This document shows, piece by piece, positions 4 through 8,463 of a stretch of 14,345 nucleotides of DNA. The stretch is from Thermodesulfobacteriota bacterium (GTDB lineage: Bacteria; Desulfobacterota; Desulfobacteria; Desulfobacterales; Desulfatibacillaceae), in contig JBFMHL010000078.1 of assembly GCA_040753055.1 (NCBI GenBank), positions 1 through 14,345 on the forward strand. The letters run 5' to 3'. The notes under the pieces are model-generated. The model saw only the letters and a program-made list of their open reading frames with translations. It did no database searches and was not told the DNA's origin. Each line of letters opens with the position of its first letter. The first letter of the stretch is position 1. The translations under genes and the position numbers were made by a program.

Positions 4-750
4 TTAAATGTTCACGCGGCGGATTGCCACGCGTTCGCCGTCGAAGTGGATCATCTGCCCGCGCAGTGCAGGCCCGCGTCCCGCCAGGATGCGGATGGCT
101 TCAGCGGCCTGGATTCCGGCGATGACGGCAACGGCGGGCGAGAGGACCGCGGGCGGCTCCTTTGCTTCCTTCGCGTTGTGGAAAAGGCGGTCGAAGGCCT
201 CGTGGTCCGCGGGAAAAAAGGTCGCGGCCTGTCCGGACCATTGGGAAACCGCGCCGTGGACGAAGGGAGCGTTGAGCGTCCGGGCCGCGGCGAAGGCTGC
301 GCGGCGGGAAGCGATATTGTCCAGGCCGTCCACGATGAGGTCCGCACCGGAGAAGATGTGAATGGCCCCCTTTTCCTCTATTCTGTCTACGCGGGCCATG
401 GCTCGGGTGAAAGGGCTTGCGTCGCGCACGGCCCGTGCCGCCTGGCGGGCCTTGGCCTTGCCCAGGGCCTTGCGGGTGCAGATGGGTTGGCGGTTGGTGT
501 TGGTCTCGTCGAAGTCGTCGTCGTCTATCAGGATGAGCCTCCCCACGCCCGCGCGGGCCAGCAGCAGGCAGAGGTGCCCGCCCAGGCCCCCCAGGCCGGC
601 CACAGCCACGCAGGAGCGCAGCAGGCGCTTCTGCTCCTCGGCGCTAAGCGCCGGGCTGTTGCGGGAAAGGGCTTCCGGCCAGATGCCCTGGTCCAGATCT
701 TCCGCCGCGATTTTCGAGGGCGGGATGGACGATTCGGGGTTTTGATCCAT
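4..750 (-). CDS. ThiF/MoeB/HesA-family E1-like adenylyltransferase (sulfur-carrier-protein activating enzyme); C-terminus runs off the window edge
   Basis: Real start is at MDQNPESS (ATG = revcomp of 748-750), not the upstream in-frame extension. Glycine-rich nucleotide loop VAVAGLGGLGG and the LILIDDDDFDETN motif are typical of ThiF/MoeB. The start abuts the stop of the upstream gene. No CxxC zinc motifs are visible in the part inside the window. Confidence 0.8.
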   Translation of the reverse strand: MDQNPESSIPPSKIAAEDLDQGIWPEALSRNSPALSAEEQKRLLRSCVAVAGLGGLGGHLCLLLARAGVGRLILIDDDDFDETNTNRQPICTRKALGKAKARQAARAVRDASPFTRAMARVDRIEEKGAIHIFSGADLIVDGLDNIASRRAAFAAARTLNAPFVHGAVSQWSGQAATFFPADHEAFDRLFHNAKEAKEPPAVLSPAVAVIAGIQAAEAIRILAGRGPALRGQMIHFDGERVAIRRVNI

Positions 751-752
751 GG

Positions 753-1280
753 TCACTGCTCCCAGGGTGAAAACTCCTCGTCGGGGTTGTCCACAATCCG
801 GGAAAGCCTCATGCTTGCGTCGTTCCGGATGGCTTCCTTCATTTCCTCGCCGAAGCCGCGGGACTCCATCCAGCGTTCCAGAAGAGGCCCGCCCGGCTTC
901 CAGAGCTCCATGGTTTCCGCTTCCGTCACCCAGGCCTTGAGCCTGATCCCGTGCTTTTTCAAGATGGCCCACACCGAGTCGCGGTTGCGCCGGTCGCAGT
1001 AGACCATCATGACGCACTCCTCCATCCCCAGGTTGGTGGGTGGGTTGCGGTCGTACTTGATGCAGGGAATCATGCGGGCTTCCACATAGGGATCCAGCTT
1101 GCGCGCGAGCTCGGCGAGCTTTTCCGCGCTTCCCAGCACCAGCCATTTTCCCCAGTAGGCCAGGACCTCCCCGTTGGTCAGCGGCCGCCCCTGGAACACG
1201 GTGTACTTTTCCCCGTGGAAGATCGCAGGATGGTACACGAAGACGAAGTGGCTTTCCGGCTGGTCCACGATCACCCTCAA
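753..1280 (-). CDS. Divergent MoaE-like protein (molybdopterin synthase catalytic subunit homolog), 175 aa
   Basis: Collinear motif matches to E. coli MoaE as I remember it: N-terminal VIVDQPE vs IVVGPQP; TVFQGRP vs VTFTGKVR; SAEKLAELARKL vs TEKALAEIVDEA; VMMVYCDRRNRDSVWA vs IVFVGVTSAHRSSAFEA; ELWKPG vs PFWKRE. Start ATG overlaps the MoaD-like stop (ATGA), which fits translational coupling. It sits between a MoaD-like and a MoeB-like gene. The canonical His-Arg pair appears to be substituted. Confidence 0.5.
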   Translation of the reverse strand: MRVIVDQPESHFVFVYHPAIFHGEKYTVFQGRPLTNGEVLAYWGKWLVLGSAEKLAELARKLDPYVEARMIPCIKYDRNPPTNLGMEECVMMVYCDRRNRDSVWAILKKHGIRLKAWVTEAETMELWKPGGPLLERWMESRGFGEEMKEAIRNDASMRLSRIVDNPDEEFSPWEQ

Positions 1281-1558
1281 CCTCCGGCGGAAAGCGGGAT
1301 GATGGAGATTTCGTCCCCGTCCTTCACCCTCGTTTCGAGACCGGACAGGGAGAGGTAGTTGTCGCCGTTTAGGAACACCAGCAAGCCCGAGGCCTTGCCT
1401 TCGGGGTGGTTCAGCCGCTCGGAAAAGAGCGGAAAACGCTCAGCGACATGGTCCAGGCATTCATCCAGGGTGGTTCCTTCGGAGCTTACTTCGTCCGCTC
1501 CGCCGAACCAGCGGGAGAGCGATCCCGGAACAAGAACCGATACCGGCATGGCGTTCAC
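1277..1558 (-). CDS. MoaD/ThiS-family ubiquitin-like sulfur carrier protein (93 aa, C-terminal Gly-Gly)
   Basis: The protein ends ...GDEISIIPLSAGG, with the GDE-x-x-x-P-x-x-GG C-terminal pattern typical of MoaD/ThiS. Size fits. It lies in an operon with an E1-like enzyme. No obvious SD; the start is 7 nt after the upstream stop, so coupling is likely. Confidence 0.8.
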   Translation of the reverse strand: MNAMPVSVLVPGSLSRWFGGADEVSSEGTTLDECLDHVAERFPLFSERLNHPEGKASGLLVFLNGDNYLSLSGLETRVKDGDEISIIPLSAGG

Positions 1559-1564
1559 TCCGGC

Positions 1565-1879
1565 TCAGGAAAAGGTGAGAACCTTGTCCGCTTCCCTCAT
1601 GATCTCGTAAAGATCGTCCATCCAGGCGATGGGGCAGCTGGCGGAGCCCGCGAGACCGTGGGCTTTCATGCACACCCCTCAGACGTAGAAGTCGCCGGTG
1701 AACTGGTTGATCTGGCCCATGACGTCGAAGGCCTCGCTCCCGGCGGACTCGAAGAGCACGCCCGCCCCCAGCATGAAGACGCTCACTTCGTCGCCCTTGC
1801 GCGCGCCCGTGTTGGCGATCCGAAGGGCGTTGACCATGGTTTCGCCGTCACTGGTGGCAATGATGACAAGCAGCTTCAT
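1565..1879 (-). CDS. DsrE/DsrF-family sulfur-relay protein with an in-frame UGA (predicted selenocysteine), 104 aa on read-through
   Basis: The track ORF 1679..1879 (66 aa, MKLLVIIATSDGETMVNALRIANTGARKGDEVSVFMLGAGVLFESAGSEAFDVMGQINQFTGDFYV) ends at TGA, revcomp of 1679-1681. Read-through in the same frame gives U-GVCMKAHGLAGSASCPIAWMDDLYEIMREADKVLTFS and stops at 1565-1567. The DsrE-family active-site cysteine motif (vC...a.Gl) lies only in the read-through part, and it creates a U-x-x-C motif. There is a SECIS-like hairpin 15 nt downstream of the UGA. RBS GGAGAGG sits 6 nt upstream of the ATG. As I recall, a DsrE-like selenoprotein family has been reported in Deltaproteobacteria. Confidence 0.65.
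1645..1664 (-). promoter_or_regulatory. SECIS-like stem-loop downstream of the in-frame UGA
   Basis: mRNA sense is AGCCC-A-CG-GUCU-CG-C-GGGCU: a 5+2 bp stem with single-nt bulges and an apical loop GUCU containing G and U. The stem starts about 15 nt 3' of the UGA, which matches the spacing and form of bacterial SECIS elements. Confidence 0.45.
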
Positions 1880-1900: not shown

Positions 1901-3466
1901 CTACGCAGGCTTCTCGTTCTTTTCCTTCTTCTGCTGATGCTGCGCGACCTCGCCCAGGAAGGCGGGCAGATCGAGACCGGCCATGGCCGCCACGTCGTGG
2001 AGCGGGGGCAGGCTCTTCACCAGGCCGGAGAGGAAGTTGGCGGTGGAGGTCTTGTCTCCGTCCGCGCCGTCCCAGACCGTGACCTTGTCTATCTTGATGT
2101 TCTTGATGGCCTCCATCTGGGCGTTTACCAGGCTCTCGATCTTCTCCGTCAGGAGCAACGTGGCCACGGCCTTGGCGTCGCCGTTGCAGGACTTGATGAG
2201 CTCCAGGTAACCGGCGGCCTTGCTTTCCAGCACCATCTTCACGCCGCGGGCCTCGGCGCTGTATTTAAGCAGCACGGCGTCCGCCTCTCCGCGGGCCTCG
2301 CGGCGGGTGCGTTCGGCGGTGGCTTCGGCTGCGATCTCGATCTTTTTCCGCTCGATCTCCTGAACGACCACCTGCTCGGCGGTGAGGCGCTCCTGCTCGG
2401 CCTTGTACTGGGCCTTCTGGATCTCGGCCACGGCTTCCAGGCGGGCCACCTCTCCCTGCTGGTTGGCCTGGGCCTTCTTGACGGCCAGCCTCGCGTTGGA
2501 CTCGGCAATATTGGCCTGGGACGTGTTTTCGCCGTCCACGGCCTCGGCTTCGCGGCTCTGAACGTATACCCGGCGTTCGGCCTCGGCTTTTTTCTTGCCT
2601 TTTACGGATTCGGCCTCGTTCTCCGCCACCTTGATCTGCATAATCTTGTTGGCATCCGCTTCGCCGACGGTGGCCTTGGCTTCCTGCTGCTGTACGAAGA
2701 CCCGCTGGTCGGCCTCCGCCTGCTTCTTTCCCTTTTCGGCCTGGGCGCGGTTTTCGGCAACGCGGATTTCCTTTTCCCGCACCGCTTCGACCTCGCCGAT
2801 GGCGCCCATCTTTTCCTGGATCGCGACATCCACCTTGGCCTTGTTTACGGCCTCGGATGCGGCCTTCTTGCCGATGGACTCGATATAGCCGGACTCGTCG
2901 GTGATATCGGTGATGTTCACGTTGATGAGGTAGAGGCCAATCTTGTTGAGCTCTGGCGAGACATTCTTGCGGATGGCCTCCAGGAAGCTCTCGCGGTCCT
3001 GGTTGATCTGCTCGATGGTGAGGGAGGCGACCGTCAAACGGAGCTGGCCGAAGATGATCTCCTTGGCCATCTCCTCGATCTCTTTGGGGCTTAAGTTCAG
3101 AAGCCTTTCCGCGGCGTTGATCATGATGGCAGCTTCGGTGGAGATGCCCACCGTGAAGGTGGAGGGCACATTCACCCGGATGTTCTGCATGGAAAGAGCC
3201 TTCTGCAGGGGGATGCCGATGGTCATGGGCGTCAGGCTCATGTAGGAGTAATCCTGAATGAGCGGCCAGATGAGGGCGCCGCCGCCGTGCAGGCACCGGG
3301 CGGACTGGCCCCGCCCCACCTTGCCGTAGATCACCAGGATCTGGTCCGAGGGGCATCTTTTGTAGCGGGAGGCGAGGAACATGAGGGTGGCCACGATGAG
3401 AACCACCAGGGCCACGATGGGCAGAAGCCAGAGGCCGATGTCGAGATCCAGCGTATAACCGAACAT
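1901..3466 (-). CDS. SPFH/Band-7 flotillin-like protein (YqiK/FloA type), 522 aa
   Basis: Real start is MFGYTLDLDIGLWLLPIVALVVLIV... (ATG = revcomp of 3464-3466) with RBS AAGGAAGGGA 6 nt upstream. It has an N-terminal TM helix, an SPFH core, and a long charged EA/K/Q-rich coiled-coil tail (AEKGKKQAEADQR..., KKKAEAERR...). The in-frame upstream extension in the track lacks an RBS. Confidence 0.85.
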   Translation of the reverse strand: MFGYTLDLDIGLWLLPIVALVVLIVATLMFLASRYKRCPSDQILVIYGKVGRGQSARCLHGGGALIWPLIQDYSYMSLTPMTIGIPLQKALSMQNIRVNVPSTFTVGISTEAAIMINAAERLLNLSPKEIEEMAKEIIFGQLRLTVASLTIEQINQDRESFLEAIRKNVSPELNKIGLYLINVNITDITDESGYIESIGKKAASEAVNKAKVDVAIQEKMGAIGEVEAVREKEIRVAENRAQAEKGKKQAEADQRVFVQQQEAKATVGEADANKIMQIKVAENEAESVKGKKKAEAERRVYVQSREAEAVDGENTSQANIAESNARLAVKKAQANQQGEVARLEAVAEIQKAQYKAEQERLTAEQVVVQEIERKKIEIAAEATAERTRREARGEADAVLLKYSAEARGVKMVLESKAAGYLELIKSCNGDAKAVATLLLTEKIESLVNAQMEAIKNIKIDKVTVWDGADGDKTSTANFLSGLVKSLPPLHDVAAMAGLDLPAFLGEVAQHQQKKEKNEKPA

Positions 3467-3745
3467 GTTGTCCCTTCCTTTTAGAGAATTTCCCAGGCCT
3501 CCCGGTTCGGGTGCGGCCCGAAAGTCTTGCGATGCAGAGAACAGCCGGACAATGGGTTTGGGTCGGTCCGCCGCCACGGGAGACGTCGGCCCTGCGAGCC
3601 CGTTCGCCGGGGGGGCACGGGCCCCGGACGTGCGGCTGTTTTACACGGTGCGTATCAAAGCAGGATGGCTGCTGCGGTCCGCGAAGGCGCACCGTAGCCG
3701 GCTTGCCTTCCTGGGCCAACCTGATACCAGAAGCTCGCGCGGGCG

Positions 3746-4775: not shown

Positions 4776-5375
4776 CTATTGCGCGGCCGCCTTTTCGGCC
4801 TCCAGCCTTTTGATTTCGTTTTCTATGTTGGTCTGCTTCTGCTCGTAATCGGCCTGGGATTTTTCCAGCTGGTTCCGCTGATAGCGATATCGCCGGCCGG
4901 CGCGGTTTTGGTGCTTGCGAACTCCCATGGTTTCGACATCCTGCTTCTGCTCGTCGAGGCTCTTCTTTTCCTCCTCCAGCTTCTTGCGCTCCTGGTAGAG
5001 CTGGTTCAGACGGGCATCCCGGTTCCGAGCCTCGGCCTGCTGCCTTGCGGCGAGAGCGGATTTTCTCCGGGCTTCTTCCTCTTCCCGGCTGGTGGCGCTC
5101 GCATAGGGATTGACGAGAGCGGGACGAGCGGGCTCGGAAGTGTCGGGCGCGGCCGTCTGGGTGGTAGGAGTCAGTTGATCTGCGCCTTCGGCGGTCTGGT
5201 CCTCCGGGAGCTTGACGTACTCGGTGTCGCCTGCGCTGCCCGAGGGAATGGTGCCTGGGTCGTCGGTGTAATGCCAGTCTCCGTTTGCGTCCTGGTATCG
5301 GTAGTATCCGGCGTCCGCGGGGGAGGAAAAAAGGATCGCCAGGGCGCAACACAGGAGAAATGCGGCCCTCTTCAT
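4776..5375 (-). CDS. Secreted DUF4124-domain protein with C-terminal coiled coil (paralog B), 200 aa
   Basis: Start MKRAAFLLCCALAILFSSPADA is a signal peptide, with RBS AAAGGAAAAG upstream. The GYYRYQDANGDWHYTDDPGTIP signature that follows matches DUF4124. The C-terminus is a charged heptad-like coiled coil (EEEKKSLDEQKQ...KRLEAEKAAAQ). Confidence 0.75.
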   Translation of the reverse strand: MKRAAFLLCCALAILFSSPADAGYYRYQDANGDWHYTDDPGTIPSGSAGDTEYVKLPEDQTAEGADQLTPTTQTAAPDTSEPARPALVNPYASATSREEEEARRKSALAARQQAEARNRDARLNQLYQERKKLEEEKKSLDEQKQDVETMGVRKHQNRAGRRYRYQRNQLEKSQADYEQKQTNIENEIKRLEAEKAAAQ

Positions 5376-5548
5376 CGCTTTTCCTTTGGCTTTACGGGTT
5401 TGAGAATGACCTCGGCGTCCGGAGGTCTTGCCGATGGGCGCGGACGCCTCTGGCGGTCGGGTTTCGTTTTGGCCAAAGCCCCACGGAAGGCCTTTCGGGC
5501 TTTGCGCCTTTGCATGCCGGAAGCGGTCCGCGGCAGGCCGTTGCTTCA

Positions 5549-6124
5549 TTACGGGGTCCCTTCAGCCGCCCGCTTTTCTTCCACCTCGTTGAGCTCCTTC
5601 TCGTAGGCTAGCCTCTTTTGCTGGTAGGCGCCGATCCTGTCGTTGAGCTCCTGGATGCGGGAGTTCAACGCCCTGCCGGGTGAGGAGCGCTGTACGGACT
5701 TGCGGAGGGTTTCCACTTCTGCAATCTCGGCGGACAGAGCCTGATATTCTTCGTCCAGAGTCTTTTTTTGCACTTCCAGGCGCGCTTTGGCTTCTTGGTA
5801 CTCTTTCTCAGCCCGGGAGTCCTGCATGCCTGAAGCGGCATCCTCCGGCTGTGCCGTCTTCTTCTGGGAAGGTTTGGGCGCCTGGTTCCGGATGGCCTGC
5901 TCCCTGGCCGCCTGGTTTGTCGCCCGTTCCTCGGGGGTCAGGCTGTCTTCCACCTCCGTGTAGGTATCCACTTTGGGACGCTGGTTTGCAGGGACCTGGG
6001 AAAGATCGTCCGTGTAACGCACCGCACCGTTCTGGTCGGTGTAGCGGTAGAACTCGGCAAGGGCCCCGGATGAAAAAACGCCGAACACAAAAAAACAAAC
6101 CAAGGTCGCTGCGATTTTTTTCAT
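5549..6124 (-). CDS. Secreted DUF4124-domain protein with C-terminal coiled coil (paralog A), 192 aa
   Basis: Start MKKIAATLVCFFVFGVFSSGALA is a signal peptide; GGAGG lies about 10 nt upstream. The DUF4124-like signature is EFYRYTDQNGAVRYTDDLSQVP. The C-terminus is a coiled coil (KEYQEAKARLEVQKKTLDEEYQALSAEIAEVETLRK...). Domain order matches the downstream paralog. Confidence 0.75.
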   Translation of the reverse strand: MKKIAATLVCFFVFGVFSSGALAEFYRYTDQNGAVRYTDDLSQVPANQRPKVDTYTEVEDSLTPEERATNQAAREQAIRNQAPKPSQKKTAQPEDAASGMQDSRAEKEYQEAKARLEVQKKTLDEEYQALSAEIAEVETLRKSVQRSSPGRALNSRIQELNDRIGAYQQKRLAYEKELNEVEEKRAAEGTP

Positions 6125-6152
6125 GACGCAGAGCCTCCGGATCGGAAAAGAA

Positions 6153-6818
6153 CTAACGGCCTTTTTTCTGGGACGTGATTTTCTGCTGGGCCTGGCGAAC
6201 CAGGTACTCCGCCAGGGAAAGGCCGAGTTTTTTTGCCTCGAGCTTCTGCATCTCGATGTTGAACACGGCGACGAGCTCCGGCGGCACGGGCATGCCGAAC
6301 TCGCGCTGGAAGGTTTCCGTGAGCTTCTCCATGGAAGGGTTATCGCCGGAAACCACATTGCGCAGAAGCTCGATCTTGGATTTGCCGGTGGCTACCTTGA
6401 CCCCGGCGGATACCACAGCCTTGCGCCGCAGCTCGGCACGGAAGAATGCCACGATGGCTGGGGAGGGTCTTTCCCCGCGTTTTTCCAAAAAGACCTGCTG
6501 GAGCTTTTCGGTGCTGGGCTCGTCCTGGGCCACAACGGAGCGCACCAGCTCCAAGGCCGACTCGCCCGCGGTGCGGGTAATTTCTTCCTTCTTTTTTTCC
6601 CTCCGGGCGACTTCCTTTTGGAAGAGCTGTACCAGGTCGGGAGTCGCGGGGCGGCCGAACTCCTCCATCACCGTCTTGTGCAACACGGAAAGAGAAGGGT
6701 TTTCCTGCGCCGCTACCGTTTTGACCAGAGCCACCTTCATCTTGAACAGAAGGTCGCCTTCGCCGGGAAGATCGGACGGATTGGGAGCCGGATTCGATGA
6801 TTCGTTTGAAGCCTGCAT
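6153..6818 (-). CDS. Hypothetical protein made of three tandem ~55-aa internal repeats (221 aa); family not recognised
   Basis: Repeat units: (1) KMKVALVKTVAAQENPSLSVLHKTVMEEFGRPATPDLVQLFQKEVARRE; (2) ALELVRSVVAQDEPSTEKLQQVFLEKRGERPSPAIVAFFRAELRRK; (3) KIELLRNVVSGDNPSMEKLTETFQREFGMPVPPELVAVFNIEMQKLEAK. Shared pattern is lv+.Vv..#nPS.ekL...f.eefG.P..Pe.V..F..E. GC3 codon bias is strong. The plus-strand ORFs overlapping it are R/S-rich antisense artefacts. Confidence 0.65.
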   Translation of the reverse strand: MQASNESSNPAPNPSDLPGEGDLLFKMKVALVKTVAAQENPSLSVLHKTVMEEFGRPATPDLVQLFQKEVARREKKKEEITRTAGESALELVRSVVAQDEPSTEKLQQVFLEKRGERPSPAIVAFFRAELRRKAVVSAGVKVATGKSKIELLRNVVSGDNPSMEKLTETFQREFGMPVPPELVAVFNIEMQKLEAKKLGLSLAEYLVRQAQQKITSQKKGR

Positions 6819-6863
6819 GGCGGCTTTTCTTTTGATGCAAAGGGTTTTCGTTACGTTTTCTAG

Positions 6864-6892
6864 GTTATAAACCTTTCCGTAAAAAAGTACAA
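6864..6892 (-). promoter_or_regulatory. Sigma-70-like promoter for the repeat-protein operon
   Basis: Minus-sense TTGTAC (revcomp of 6887-6892), a 17-nt spacer, then TATAAC (revcomp of 6864-6869). It lies in a low-GC intergenic region about 45 nt upstream of the CDS start at 6818. Confidence 0.35.
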
Positions 6893-7118
6893 CTTTAATG
6901 AAAACAAAGGCATAACAACAGATGAACCGTACCCCCTCCCATACATGCCAAATGATGCGAAGAGGTTAAAATTTGCTTCGGAGGCCCCAAGACGGAGTGG
7001 CGGGCCCGCGCAAAATGCTCGAATAAGAACTCCATGCTCCATTTATTCCCGAAGCAGCGCCGTGCCCTTGAGCCCGATCCACGAATCTTGAAACCACGGC
7101 TCGCTTTGCGTTCGGCGA

Positions 7119-8060
7119 TCACGCCAAACGAAGGAGGAAGCTCTTCACCTTTCGGATCGGATGGTAGGATTTCTTGGCCTTTGCGAGCCCGGGGATCCCC
7201 ATGTCCGACTCCTTGTTGATGAGCTCCTGGCCGGGAAAGAGCCTGCGGGCGCACTCCCGGTCAAAGACCTGATACAGGCCCTTGATGGAAGAGAAGGCCT
7301 TTTCGAAATTAAGCGAGCCCATGCTCCTGGTCACGTCCGATGACATGGCAAGGGCGGAAACCTTGCCGTCCAGACTCAAGAGGATACCGCGCCACCCGGA
7401 TTTTTCTCCGTTCTCCGCCAAGGCCCTCAGAGCGTTTTCCGCGGCGTCGCGCTCGCATGCCAGATCGTCGTCCTCTGTATTGCAGTCCCGCTCCTTGCAC
7501 CACTCTTCCAGAAACACCAGGCATGCATCCAATGAGCCGGAGTCAATGGGGGAAACCACCACCATTCCGTTCTGCCCGTAGAGACGTTCGAACTGGTGGA
7601 TCAGGTTTCTTTTTTTGTGGTACTTGTCGCCGGCGAGCTCGGCGAGGTCCGAGGCAAGATACACATAGTCGTCGAATCGTGGATCGCGCTCGACGGAGAA
7701 AAGGGTTTCCATCTGTTTGCGGTCCTGCCGGGCGATCCAGTCTTCCGTCACGAACCAGACCTCCGGAGCGTCGGCCTCCTTCGCCAGGGCTGCCAGCTCC
7801 GGAGCTGCCATTTCCGCTTGGGGCTTGATGGGAAGGAGCAGGTGGGCCGGTTTTTTAGGATCGGCGTAGTCCGCGCGGATCACCAGAAAGCCGTCTTTTT
7901 CCGCCACCTCGGGCCAGAAGTACTGGTTGTTCCAGGCCAGAATGGACGCAATAGAATAGCTGCAAAGATCATAGCGCTGGTCTTTGAAAAATGGCGCCAG
8001 CTCCGCATAATTTTTCGGGAAAACCTTTTGAAAAATCATGAGTCTTTCATTCCCTTGCAT
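7119..8060 (-). CDS. FemAB/MprF-C-terminal-like tandem GNAT-fold protein (DUF2156-type; possible aminoacyl transferase), ~306-313 aa
   Basis: Length and motifs (YDLCSYSIASILAWNNQYF, KKRNLIHQFERLYG) resemble the lysyl-PG synthase C-terminal domain / FemAB-like acyltransferase family. The call rests on my recall of that fold and is not verified. Start is either at 8060 (overlapping the upstream GNAT gene by 14 nt, no RBS) or at 8039 (MIFQKVF, with a GAAAGA-like RBS). Confidence 0.4.
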   Translation of the reverse strand: MQGNERLMIFQKVFPKNYAELAPFFKDQRYDLCSYSIASILAWNNQYFWPEVAEKDGFLVIRADYADPKKPAHLLLPIKPQAEMAAPELAALAKEADAPEVWFVTEDWIARQDRKQMETLFSVERDPRFDDYVYLASDLAELAGDKYHKKRNLIHQFERLYGQNGMVVVSPIDSGSLDACLVFLEEWCKERDCNTEDDDLACERDAAENALRALAENGEKSGWRGILLSLDGKVSALAMSSDVTRSMGSLNFEKAFSSIKGLYQVFDRECARRLFPGQELINKESDMGIPGLAKAKKSYHPIRKVKSFLLRLA

Positions 8061-8463
8061 ACCGCATGGGCACGCAGCCCTTCATGGGCCGGAAGCCCAG
8101 CCGCTCGTAGAATGGCTGGGAGCCCTCTTCGGCCACCAGCGCGATCCATCCGACGCGATCTGCGGAGAGCCGGTCCACGATGGCTTGAATGATCCGGCTT
8201 CCCAGCCTCTCGTTCCGGAAGCCGGGTTCGACTACAACGTCCTGGATGTAAGCGTCACTTGCGCCGTCCGAGATGGCGCGGCCCATGCCAACGATTTTTC
8301 CGTTCATCCGGGCCACCGCAAAGCAATGGCTCCCCCGAATGATCCGCGGGATGGAGGCGGCTTCGTCGCCCGGCTCCCACCAGCCCTGGCCTTGGTAAAG
8401 GCGCCGGATGTCTTCCGCCGTTTCGTCATCCGCCTCTGAAAGAAAGGAGATTGCCGGCTCCAT
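8047..8463 (-). CDS. GNAT-family N-acetyltransferase, 138 aa
   Basis: The acetyl-CoA binding motif A VVVEPGFRNERLGSRIIQAIV (R/Q-x-x-G-x-G/A) and a C-terminal YERLGF element are present. RBS AGGAAGGA is 7 nt upstream of the ATG. Confidence 0.8.
   Translation of the reverse strand: MEPAISFLSEADDETAEDIRRLYQGQGWWEPGDEAASIPRIIRGSHCFAVARMNGKIVGMGRAISDGASDAYIQDVVVEPGFRNERLGSRIIQAIVDRLSADRVGWIALVAEEGSQPFYERLGFRPMKGCVPMRYARE

Follow-up and report, generated by a model that had tools for sequence, protein, structure and literature searches.

The question raised by this locus is whether a Gly-Gly-terminated ubiquitin-like carrier, a small partner protein encoded directly downstream and an E1-like activating enzyme amount to a molybdopterin synthase, as their gene order implies, or to a different system. 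The genes lie at positions 4–1879 of the window, the 14,345-bp contig of a Thermodesulfobacteriota metagenome-assembled genome (MAG) that was analyzed here, in which four co-directional open reading frames (ORFs) are read on the minus strand. A first-pass annotation, which placed these four ORFs correctly, described them as a relay in which a DsrE-like protein containing selenocysteine (Sec) feeds a molybdopterin or tungstopterin synthase of the MoaD, MoaE and MoeB type. Its view that a carrier is tightly coupled to a partner gene and accompanied by an E1 holds. The locus is a ubiquitin-like carrier module of three genes, encoding a ThiS/MoaD-type carrier, a 173-residue protein termed X173 and a ThiF/MoeB-type E1, and it is almost certainly not a molybdopterin synthase. 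The reading as a molybdenum-cofactor operon is set aside because the supposed MoaE is a predicted BLES03-like protein whose gene accompanies those of the carrier and the E1, mostly in clusters for toluene and alkane degradation. The genes of the module and the adjoining selenoprotein gene are the following.

4..750, minus strand: ThiF/MoeB-type adenylyltransferase (E1-like), 248 residues (Pfam ThiF, 2.6e-49)
753..1274, minus strand: X173, 173 residues, predicted BLES03-like (phosphothreonine-lyase/eIF4E-like) fold, previously called MoaE-like (predicted structure and fold search)
1277..1549, minus strand: ThiS/MoaD-type β-grasp carrier, 90 residues, GG end (Pfam ThiS, 1.9e-11)
1566..1879, minus strand: DsrE-like selenoprotein, 104 residues with Sec at residue 67 (Pfam DsrE, 5.4e-9)

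X173, the carrier and the E1-like enzyme

The protein that had been taken for a divergent MoaE does not belong to that family. Searched against Pfam and NCBIfam at E ≤ 1, X173 gave no match to MoaE (PF02391) or to any other family, the BLES03 family (PF08939) included, and its predicted fold is a different one. The PADLOC defence models gave no match to X173, that set returning only generic E1 similarity, and no match was obtained in a plasmid collection. The window's own X173 is not on record according to an exact look-up, and a PDB sequence search with the family profile returned only chance-level phosphodiesterase matches. The family is tight, comprising ~100 clusters at 42–71% identity, and every member is annotated as a hypothetical protein. 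Invariant residues include D6, Y26, N36, W43-G44-K45, K75-x-D77-R78, C95, W104, W117 and W127. K45 and K75 do not vary among 35 sequences, Y94 is kept in at least 90%, and the motif containing C95, a family-specific cysteine, is present in 85 of 85 X173 ORFs.

An AlphaFold model of X173 was built on 35 homologues, with a predicted local distance difference test score of 93.6 and a predicted template modelling score of 0.88, and three independent comparisons give a single closest relative, human BLES03/C11orf68 (PDB 1ztp). Foldseek placed 1ztp at the top (probability 1.0, E 3e-3), with the phosphothreonine lyases OspF and SpvC further down and eIF4E cap-binding proteins also among the fold matches. 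The profile of X173 and its remote homologues likewise has 1ztp as its top PDB sequence, at an E value of only 0.048, with the GKW, AK(Y/V) and CVY.DD motifs aligned. Residues K128, K159 and Y175 of BLES03 have been proposed as equivalents of K104, K136 (the catalytic base) and Y158 of SpvC (PMC4159009), and in the profile alignment they fall on K45, K75 and Y94 of X173. The predicted fold is shared with BLES03, OspF, SpvC and the lyase domain of class III/IV lanthipeptide synthetases, and the three motifs and the proposed catalytic Lys/Lys/Tyr set are shared with BLES03. As modelled, X173 is a BLES03-like protein that retains the proposed catalytic constellation, not a proven lyase; it is filed by fold rather than by activity because the similarity is remote and the activity of BLES03 is only predicted.

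An exhaustive profile search for the X173 domain yielded 144 representatives. The core signature, GKW ... AKY ... CVY.DD ... WKYD..T..DW.PGG, marks a wider domain family that is absent from Pfam. Remote homologues of the core (P0231–P0347) are stand-alone proteins of 130–140 residues or fusions to TIR, Thoeris-type TIR, EAD1/7/11, Macro, nucleotidyltransferase or PD-(D/E)XK nuclease domains, and the fusions of this wider family point to conflict or signalling systems. X173 paralogues also occur in tandem, three in a Dehalococcoidia MAG (L079 1379–3250) and two in Desulfosporosinus Tol-M (L064 8001–9520). An attempt to identify X173 among the named bss genes (bssG, bssI, bssP or bssL) gave no result; the papers contain neither sequences nor domain data, and the homologues are all called "hypothetical".

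The carrier and the E1-like enzyme had been recognized for what they are. The carrier matches Pfam ThiS (PF02597) at 44.8 bits against a cut-off of 22.5, and its C terminus, SAGG, makes a Gly-Gly available for adenylation; of 76 carrier homologues, 60 end in GG and 14 in AG. Its NCBIfam matches, to moaD_arch (2e-10), SAMP1 and Urm1-like models, are all below cut-off. The best solved relatives are CysO-type carriers, 4n6e_B (4e-9) and 3dwg_C (1e-7), followed by MoaD-related and SAMP1-like structures. The ThiF ORF matches Pfam ThiF (PF00899) at 168 bits against a cut-off of 28.1 and contains the Gly-rich loop VAGLGGLGG. E. coli ThiF and MoeB are its closest solved relatives, and every NCBIfam equivalog scores far below cut-off (MoeB, 127.9 bits against 449; ThiF, 119 against 275). 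The window E1 is devoid of a rhodanese domain, and not one cysteine is shared by all 42 module-linked E1s. Two zinc-binding CxxC pairs are found in 31 of these 42 enzymes, and both motifs are lost in the window E1 and in those of L003, L004, L009, L055 and L058, which include its closest relatives.

The genes are closely packed, with spacings that depart in part from those first described. The carrier may start at GTG 1558 (93 residues) or at ATG 1549 (90 residues), which has GGAG 8 nt upstream and is the likelier start because homologues begin with MPV. A gap of 7 nt between the DsrE-like and carrier genes is correct for GTG 1558, whereas ATG 1549 leaves 16 nt. The carrier and X173 genes had been thought to overlap by ATGA; the carrier stop, TGA, lies at 1277–1279 and X173 begins 2 nt further on at GTG 1274, a start that matches every homologue and the NCBI annotation (173 residues, P0001), and the alternative start, TTG 1280, would give a TTGA overlap. 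The last two genes do not abut at their 3′ ends: they lie on the same strand, the X173 stop at 753–755 being followed after 2 nt by the ThiF ATG at 748–750. No promoter-like or terminator-like site was found between the genes, and the contig edge lies 3 nt beyond the ThiF stop.

Gene neighbourhood across related loci

Related loci were collected by a genome scan, with one genome per species, that gave 105 matches, of which 80 were kept; with one further locus from an exact look-up, 81 loci besides the window were read with 8-kb flanks, the ORFs being called by an in-house procedure and then clustered. The components recur as follows.

ThiS-like carrier adjacent to X173: 70 of 81 loci
ThiF adjacent: 30 of 81 loci (clustered ORFs of at least 150 residues), or 31 with shorter ORFs
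ThiF anywhere in the flank: 40 of 81 loci (3–4.5 kb off in Smithella)
MoxR-type AAA+ ATPase, ~290 residues: 51 of 81 loci
VWA protein, ~570 residues: 53 of 81 loci
Glycyl-radical activase: 23 of 81 loci
Glycyl-radical enzyme: 15 of 81 loci
At least one of MoxR, VWA, activase and glycyl-radical enzyme within 8 kb: 60 of 81 loci

The conserved unit is the carrier together with X173, which recur as a pair beyond chance. This pair is spread over Desulfobacterota, Bacillota, Chloroflexota and Pseudomonadota, and the hosts of X173 are mostly organisms that degrade hydrocarbons anaerobically or are suspected to do so: Smithella, Desulfosarcina alkanivorans, D. widdelii, Desulfobacula, Desulfatiglandales, Desulfatibacillaceae and MAGs from tar biofilms, as well as Desulfosporosinus Tol-M, in which X173 lies on a contig named for bssA. 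The glycyl-radical enzymes match the benzylsuccinate synthase α subunit TutD (1555 bits) or the (1-methylalkyl)succinate synthase MasD (1394 bits). Genes of succinate-synthase clusters are found within 8 kb in 46 of the 51 loci that have no adjacent ThiF. Further recurrent neighbours are bbs-like β-oxidation genes, methylmalonyl-CoA-mutase-like genes with MeaB, and DUF4125; a PNPOx-like protein and a radical S-adenosylmethionine (SAM) protein with a SPASM domain also recur near X173. Among the recurrent neighbour clusters of the 81 loci there are no molybdenum-cofactor genes (moaA, moaC, moeA or mog) and no JAMM/MPN peptidase.

The MoxR-type and VWA genes correspond to BssE and BssF of the benzylsuccinate synthase operons, and homologous pairs flank the carrier and X173 in most of the related loci. 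The accessory genes that every bss operon shares are BssE (AAA+) and BssF (VWA, 580 residues); BssE is indispensable for the degradation of toluene, and disruption of bssF abolishes growth on toluene, although a polar effect on co-transcribed downstream genes is possible according to the authors (PMC7285207, PMC5874301). In 23 loci the MoxR gene starts 0.4–1.3 kb downstream of the start of X173 and therefore forms a carrier–X173–MoxR–VWA block. The association extends to gene fusion: P0219 unites the X173 domain with a full-length BssF-like protein (E 2e-51, residues 194–751), and P0211 unites it with DUF4125. Taken as a family, the module is probably an accessory of succinate-synthase clusters. 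A third apparent fusion, P0218 (635 residues), combines X173 with a complete EngA/Der GTPase; it is probably a gene-call or assembly artefact and is not counted as evidence.

Several details of these loci are recorded in their own right. Two MoxR–VWA pairs are present in L013, L015, L025, L051 and L054, one beside the succinate-synthase genes and one beside the carrier and X173. In L016, L022, L026 and L028, from Smithella and Syntrophaceae, a radical-SAM/SPASM gene separates the VWA gene from a distal ThiF gene, at +3.2 to +4.5 kb from X173, so that the Smithella-type gene order is carrier–X173–MoxR–VWA–radical SAM/SPASM–ThiF. A Cys-rich protein of ~122 residues (cluster 13), with no match in Pfam or NCBIfam, is conserved in alkylsuccinate-type clusters, usually beside the activase or MoxR gene (L006–L008, L010, L012, L013, L015, L017–L019, L021, L023 and L025); it may be a small synthase subunit.

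In the published descriptions of bss or mas clusters, no mention of a ThiS, ThiF or X173 component was found. A search of the open-access literature gave no paper that connects benzyl- or alkylsuccinate synthases with ThiF, MoaD, MoeB or ubiquitin-like proteins, an earlier mention in genome papers being possible, and a 2025 MASS structure paper makes no mention of ThiF, MoaD, MoeB or ubiquitin-like genes. What is new is the X173 partner family and its systematic link to bss/ass/mas clusters; the DsrE-like selenoprotein and the ThiS/ThiF type of pair are already known.

Proposed role and alternatives

The favoured explanation is that the locus encodes a sulfur-carrier system like that of CysO, or a ubiquitin-like one, that includes a new partner enzyme and is accessory to fumarate-adding glycyl-radical enzymes. 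As a whole package, this explanation is given a probability of about 0.45. The carriers of CysO-CysM-MoeZ, which serves mycobacterial cysteine synthesis, and of CysO-BexX, which serves 2-thiosugar synthesis, are the closest solved relatives of the window carrier. In CysM, the carrier thiocarboxylate attacks the electrophile that arises by elimination of phosphate from O-phosphoserine, and, by analogy, chemistry of this kind could be supplied by a lyase-fold partner such as X173. The main differences between the module and CysO-CysM-MoeZ are that the partner is not a pyridoxal-phosphate (PLP) enzyme, that there is no JAMM protease (Mec+) for product release, and that the rhodanese domain found in MoeZ is missing from the E1.

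In the proposed mechanism, ThiF would adenylate the C-terminal glycine of the carrier, and an outside persulfide donor would most likely convert the activated carrier to a thiocarboxylate. The donor is placed outside the module because the E1 has neither a universally conserved cysteine nor a rhodanese domain. X173 would dock the carrier in the way that MoaE docks MoaD or CysM docks CysO, and its putative basic pocket (K45, K75, R78 and Y94, with C95 next to Y94) would bring the thiocarboxylate onto an anionic substrate. This substrate would undergo elimination or Michael addition, leading to formation of a C–S bond. Together with the MoxR–VWA pair, the product or modification would help to assemble, maintain or repair fumarate-adding glycyl-radical enzymes. 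A more specific version, in which the carrier, X173 and the E1 act with the MoxR–VWA pair to repair or mature these radical enzymes at the level of their cysteine chemistry, is improbable. X173 would in that case eliminate a damaged side chain, such as the S-(2-succinyl)cysteine derived from fumarate, to dehydroalanine, and the carrier thiocarboxylate would restore the sulfur; alternatively, a small thiol such as mercaptosuccinate would be made from fumarate. If either were true, X173 would be a PLP-independent C–S bond-forming enzyme of BLES03 fold, and the first function would be assigned to this fold outside pathogens and lanthipeptides.

A number of observations weigh against the favoured explanation. 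Its basis consists of the gene identities, the predicted fold and Lys/Lys/Tyr set of X173, the conservation of the pair, the neighbourhood and the fusion; the mechanism is inferred from these. Genes of succinate-synthase clusters are found within 8 kb in only 14 of the 30 loci with adjacent ThiF, which is the type of the window. At L086, where the closest homologue lies, genes for an Fe-alcohol dehydrogenase and a ferredoxin are found in place of succinate-synthase genes. The window itself shows neither a glycyl-radical enzyme gene nor a MoxR or VWA gene; with the contig edge only 3 nt beyond ThiF, its own link to radical enzymes is out of sight. Its near relatives L003 and L004 have MoxR and/or VWA genes within 1.6–4.3 kb. 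Neither a sulfurtransferase or cysteine desulfurase nor a kinase or other obvious leaving-group generator is conserved near the module in the 81 loci, and it is the lack of the former that makes thiocarboxylate formation an assumption. The lyase activity of BLES03 is itself a computational proposal only. In addition, C95 follows Y94 on a β-strand and may therefore point away from the pocket.

The main rival explanation reads the same genes as a system for protein conjugation of the SAMP, Urm1 or Pup type, in which the C-terminal glycine of the carrier would be joined to lysine residues in target proteins; damaged or immature subunits of succinate synthases are possible examples. X173 would then be an E2/E3-like acceptor, a receptor or a deconjugating lyase, and the MoxR AAA+ and VWA proteins would remodel or extract the tagged protein. 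The module is similar to SAMP-UbaA of archaea and Urm1-Uba4 of eukaryotes, whose carriers are both sulfur carriers and protein modifiers, in having a small GG-ended carrier and a MoeB-like E1. The weak matches of the carrier to SAMP1 and Urm1-like models, the frequent position of the carrier and X173 directly beside the AAA+/VWA pair (the 23 loci with a MoxR start 0.4–1.3 kb downstream) and the fusion of X173 to a BssF-like VWA protein in P0219 are all consistent with conjugation, and the invariant, family-specific Cys95 could take a thioester. The TIR and effector-associated domains fused to remote homologues of the X173 core are likewise typical of protein signalling. The scores, however, lie below the curated cut-offs, and a dedicated, co-inherited partner such as X173 is absent from those systems. 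The E1 has no conserved catalytic cysteine, no cluster for a JAMM/MPN or other isopeptidase is conserved nearby, the predicted fold of X173 is not that of a UBC/E2 protein, and the best solved relatives of the carrier are CysO sulfur carriers. On balance, conjugation appears rather unlikely.

Two further explanations place X173 elsewhere. In the first-pass annotation, the genes form a variant molybdopterin or tungstopterin synthase, with MoaD, a divergent MoaE and MoeB, that is fed by a dedicated Sec-containing DsrE donor of sulfur or selenium. The tight coupling and a gene order that mimics moaD-moaE with an E1 argue for this explanation, as do the carrier's sub-cut-off match to moaD_arch at 2e-10 and a Sec in UGVC, of the UxxC type described for DsrE-like selenoproteins. 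The module resembles MoaD-MoaE-MoeB in its GG-ended β-grasp carrier, its tightly coupled small downstream partner and a ThiF/MoeB-type E1 without a catalytic-cysteine requirement, but it differs in that the partner shows no trace of MoaE in its sequence and has a different predicted fold, no further molybdenum-cofactor genes are nearby, and the context is one of hydrocarbon catabolism. The genes that the module accompanies are those of benzylsuccinate and alkylsuccinate synthases; moaA, moaC, moeA and mog are missing from the recurrent neighbour clusters, the MoeB equivalog score is 128 bits against a cut-off of 449, and DsrE occurs in none of the 81 related loci. A partner outside the MoaE family and a linkage not conserved in relatives had been named as the findings that would speak against such a synthase; the partner has no MoaE match and a different predicted fold, and the linkage of DsrE is not conserved, which leaves the molybdopterin explanation scarcely credible. 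Alternatively, X173 would be a non-catalytic, eIF4E-like ligand- or nucleotide-binding protein that senses the carrier adenylate or another nucleotide, as part of a regulatory or conflict module present in these clusters by chance. The eIF4E cap-binding proteins among the fold matches and the fusions of remote core homologues to TIR, Macro, nucleotidyltransferase and effector-associated domains are in keeping with such a sensor. It is nevertheless very improbable: no PADLOC defence model is matched, the linkage to catabolic clusters is strong across phyla, and, as a weaker point judged from alignment rather than three-dimensional mapping, the residues conserved are the BLES03 Lys/Lys/Tyr set and not an aromatic cap-binding sandwich.

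The favoured explanation, an accessory carrier system of fumarate-adding enzymes, bears on the benzylsuccinate and alkylsuccinate synthases that start the oxygen-free degradation of toluene and alkanes, and for which the roles of the accessory proteins BssE and BssF are unassigned. The carrier and X173, with or without the E1, are wedged among or beside the synthase genes and provide a testable lead on the maturation or maintenance of these oxygen-sensitive enzymes. The module may also aid the heterologous expression of succinate synthases, which is currently poor. The context provides a functional lead both for the "hypothetical" X173 family and for the BLES03 fold, the human protein of which is uncharacterized, and a tempting mis-annotation as MoaD, MoaE and MoeB is removed.

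The DsrE-like selenoprotein and flanking genes

The remaining member of the four-gene arrangement was correctly identified as a DsrE-like selenoprotein. Its features and the gene upstream are the following.

1679..1681, minus strand: in-frame TGA read as Sec (truncation and read-through pattern among homologues)
1631..1678, minus strand: hairpin directly downstream of the UGA, candidate bacterial selenocysteine insertion sequence (SECIS; consensus hairpin in 4 homologous loci)
1901..3577, minus strand: flotillin-like SPFH protein (Pfam Band_7 and Flot)

With the TGA read as Sec, the ORF running from 1879 to 1566 matches Pfam DsrE above cut-off (36.7 bits against 22.7) and has a UGVC motif of the UxxC type. 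About 85 of 105 DsrE-like homologues are annotated as proteins of 66 residues that end at exactly this TGA, and 11 "full-length" entries show W at the Sec position because the gene call used a genetic code in which TGA means Trp. The single true Cys homologue, P0112, has CGVC at this position, and the 37 C-terminal residues that follow the TGA are well conserved. Public gene calls for this family (P0102–P0114 and P0118–P0204) are systematically wrong, being mostly the 66-residue truncations with some that have Trp at the Sec position, and the conserved C terminus is called as a separate 33-residue ORF in L083 (3399–3500) and L084 (4211–4312). The hairpin after the UGA has a consensus across 4 homologous loci, in which one base pair shows a compensatory change (G-C to U-A). 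As a single sequence its fold stability is like that of shuffles (z-score −0.19), and an Rfam search for a SECIS at the hairpin gave no match.

A DsrE-like protein with UxxC was already listed as a prokaryotic selenoprotein family by Zhang, Fomenko and Gladyshev 2005 (PMC1088965). The window protein is similar to that family in its DsrE domain, its Sec in UxxC and a candidate hairpin after the UGA, and it differs only in the adjoining ThiS-type carrier gene, a placement that is not conserved. It is an ordinary member of this known, free-standing family of UxxC redox or sulfur-transfer proteins. In three other genomes, the homologues lie beside a pyridine-nucleotide disulfide oxidoreductase, an ArsR-type regulator or small ORFs.

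The neighbourhood comparison that had been suggested for the four genes supports the carrier–X173 pair (70 of 81 loci), with ThiF adjacent in 30, but not the inclusion of DsrE. By tblastn, no DsrE gene is present in any of the 81 X173-bearing loci, and a reading of the ORFs in the gaps upstream of ThiS found none in L001, L002 and L086. In L005, which also has no DsrE, a 73%-identical flotillin homologue (about 6150–7640) abuts ThiS–X173 with no room for DsrE between them, which suggests that the DsrE gene was inserted in the window or deleted in L005. The DsrE-like selenoprotein is not part of the conserved carrier–X173 unit, and its adjacency is peculiar to this contig. The gene is probably co-transcribed with the module. 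The flotillin-like gene lies directly upstream of DsrE in the same direction, with a gap of 21 nt, and is possibly in the same transcript as DsrE and the module. As a local sulfur donor in this one organism, the Sec-containing DsrE protein could supply the persulfide proposed above, adjacency being the sole argument for this role; it is a candidate because its Sec sits in a UxxC motif. The Sec of UGVC presumably occupies the position of the persulfide-carrying Cys of DsrE/TusD.

Further upstream in the window, on the minus strand, two neighbouring paralogous DUF4124 genes lie at 4776–6358, the second of which has a homologue upstream in the syntenic L005. At 7119–8463, also on the minus strand, an LPG_synthase_C gene, which encodes a phosphatidylglycerol lysyltransferase homologue reduced to the C-terminal domain, overlaps a GNAT acetyltransferase gene by 14 nt.

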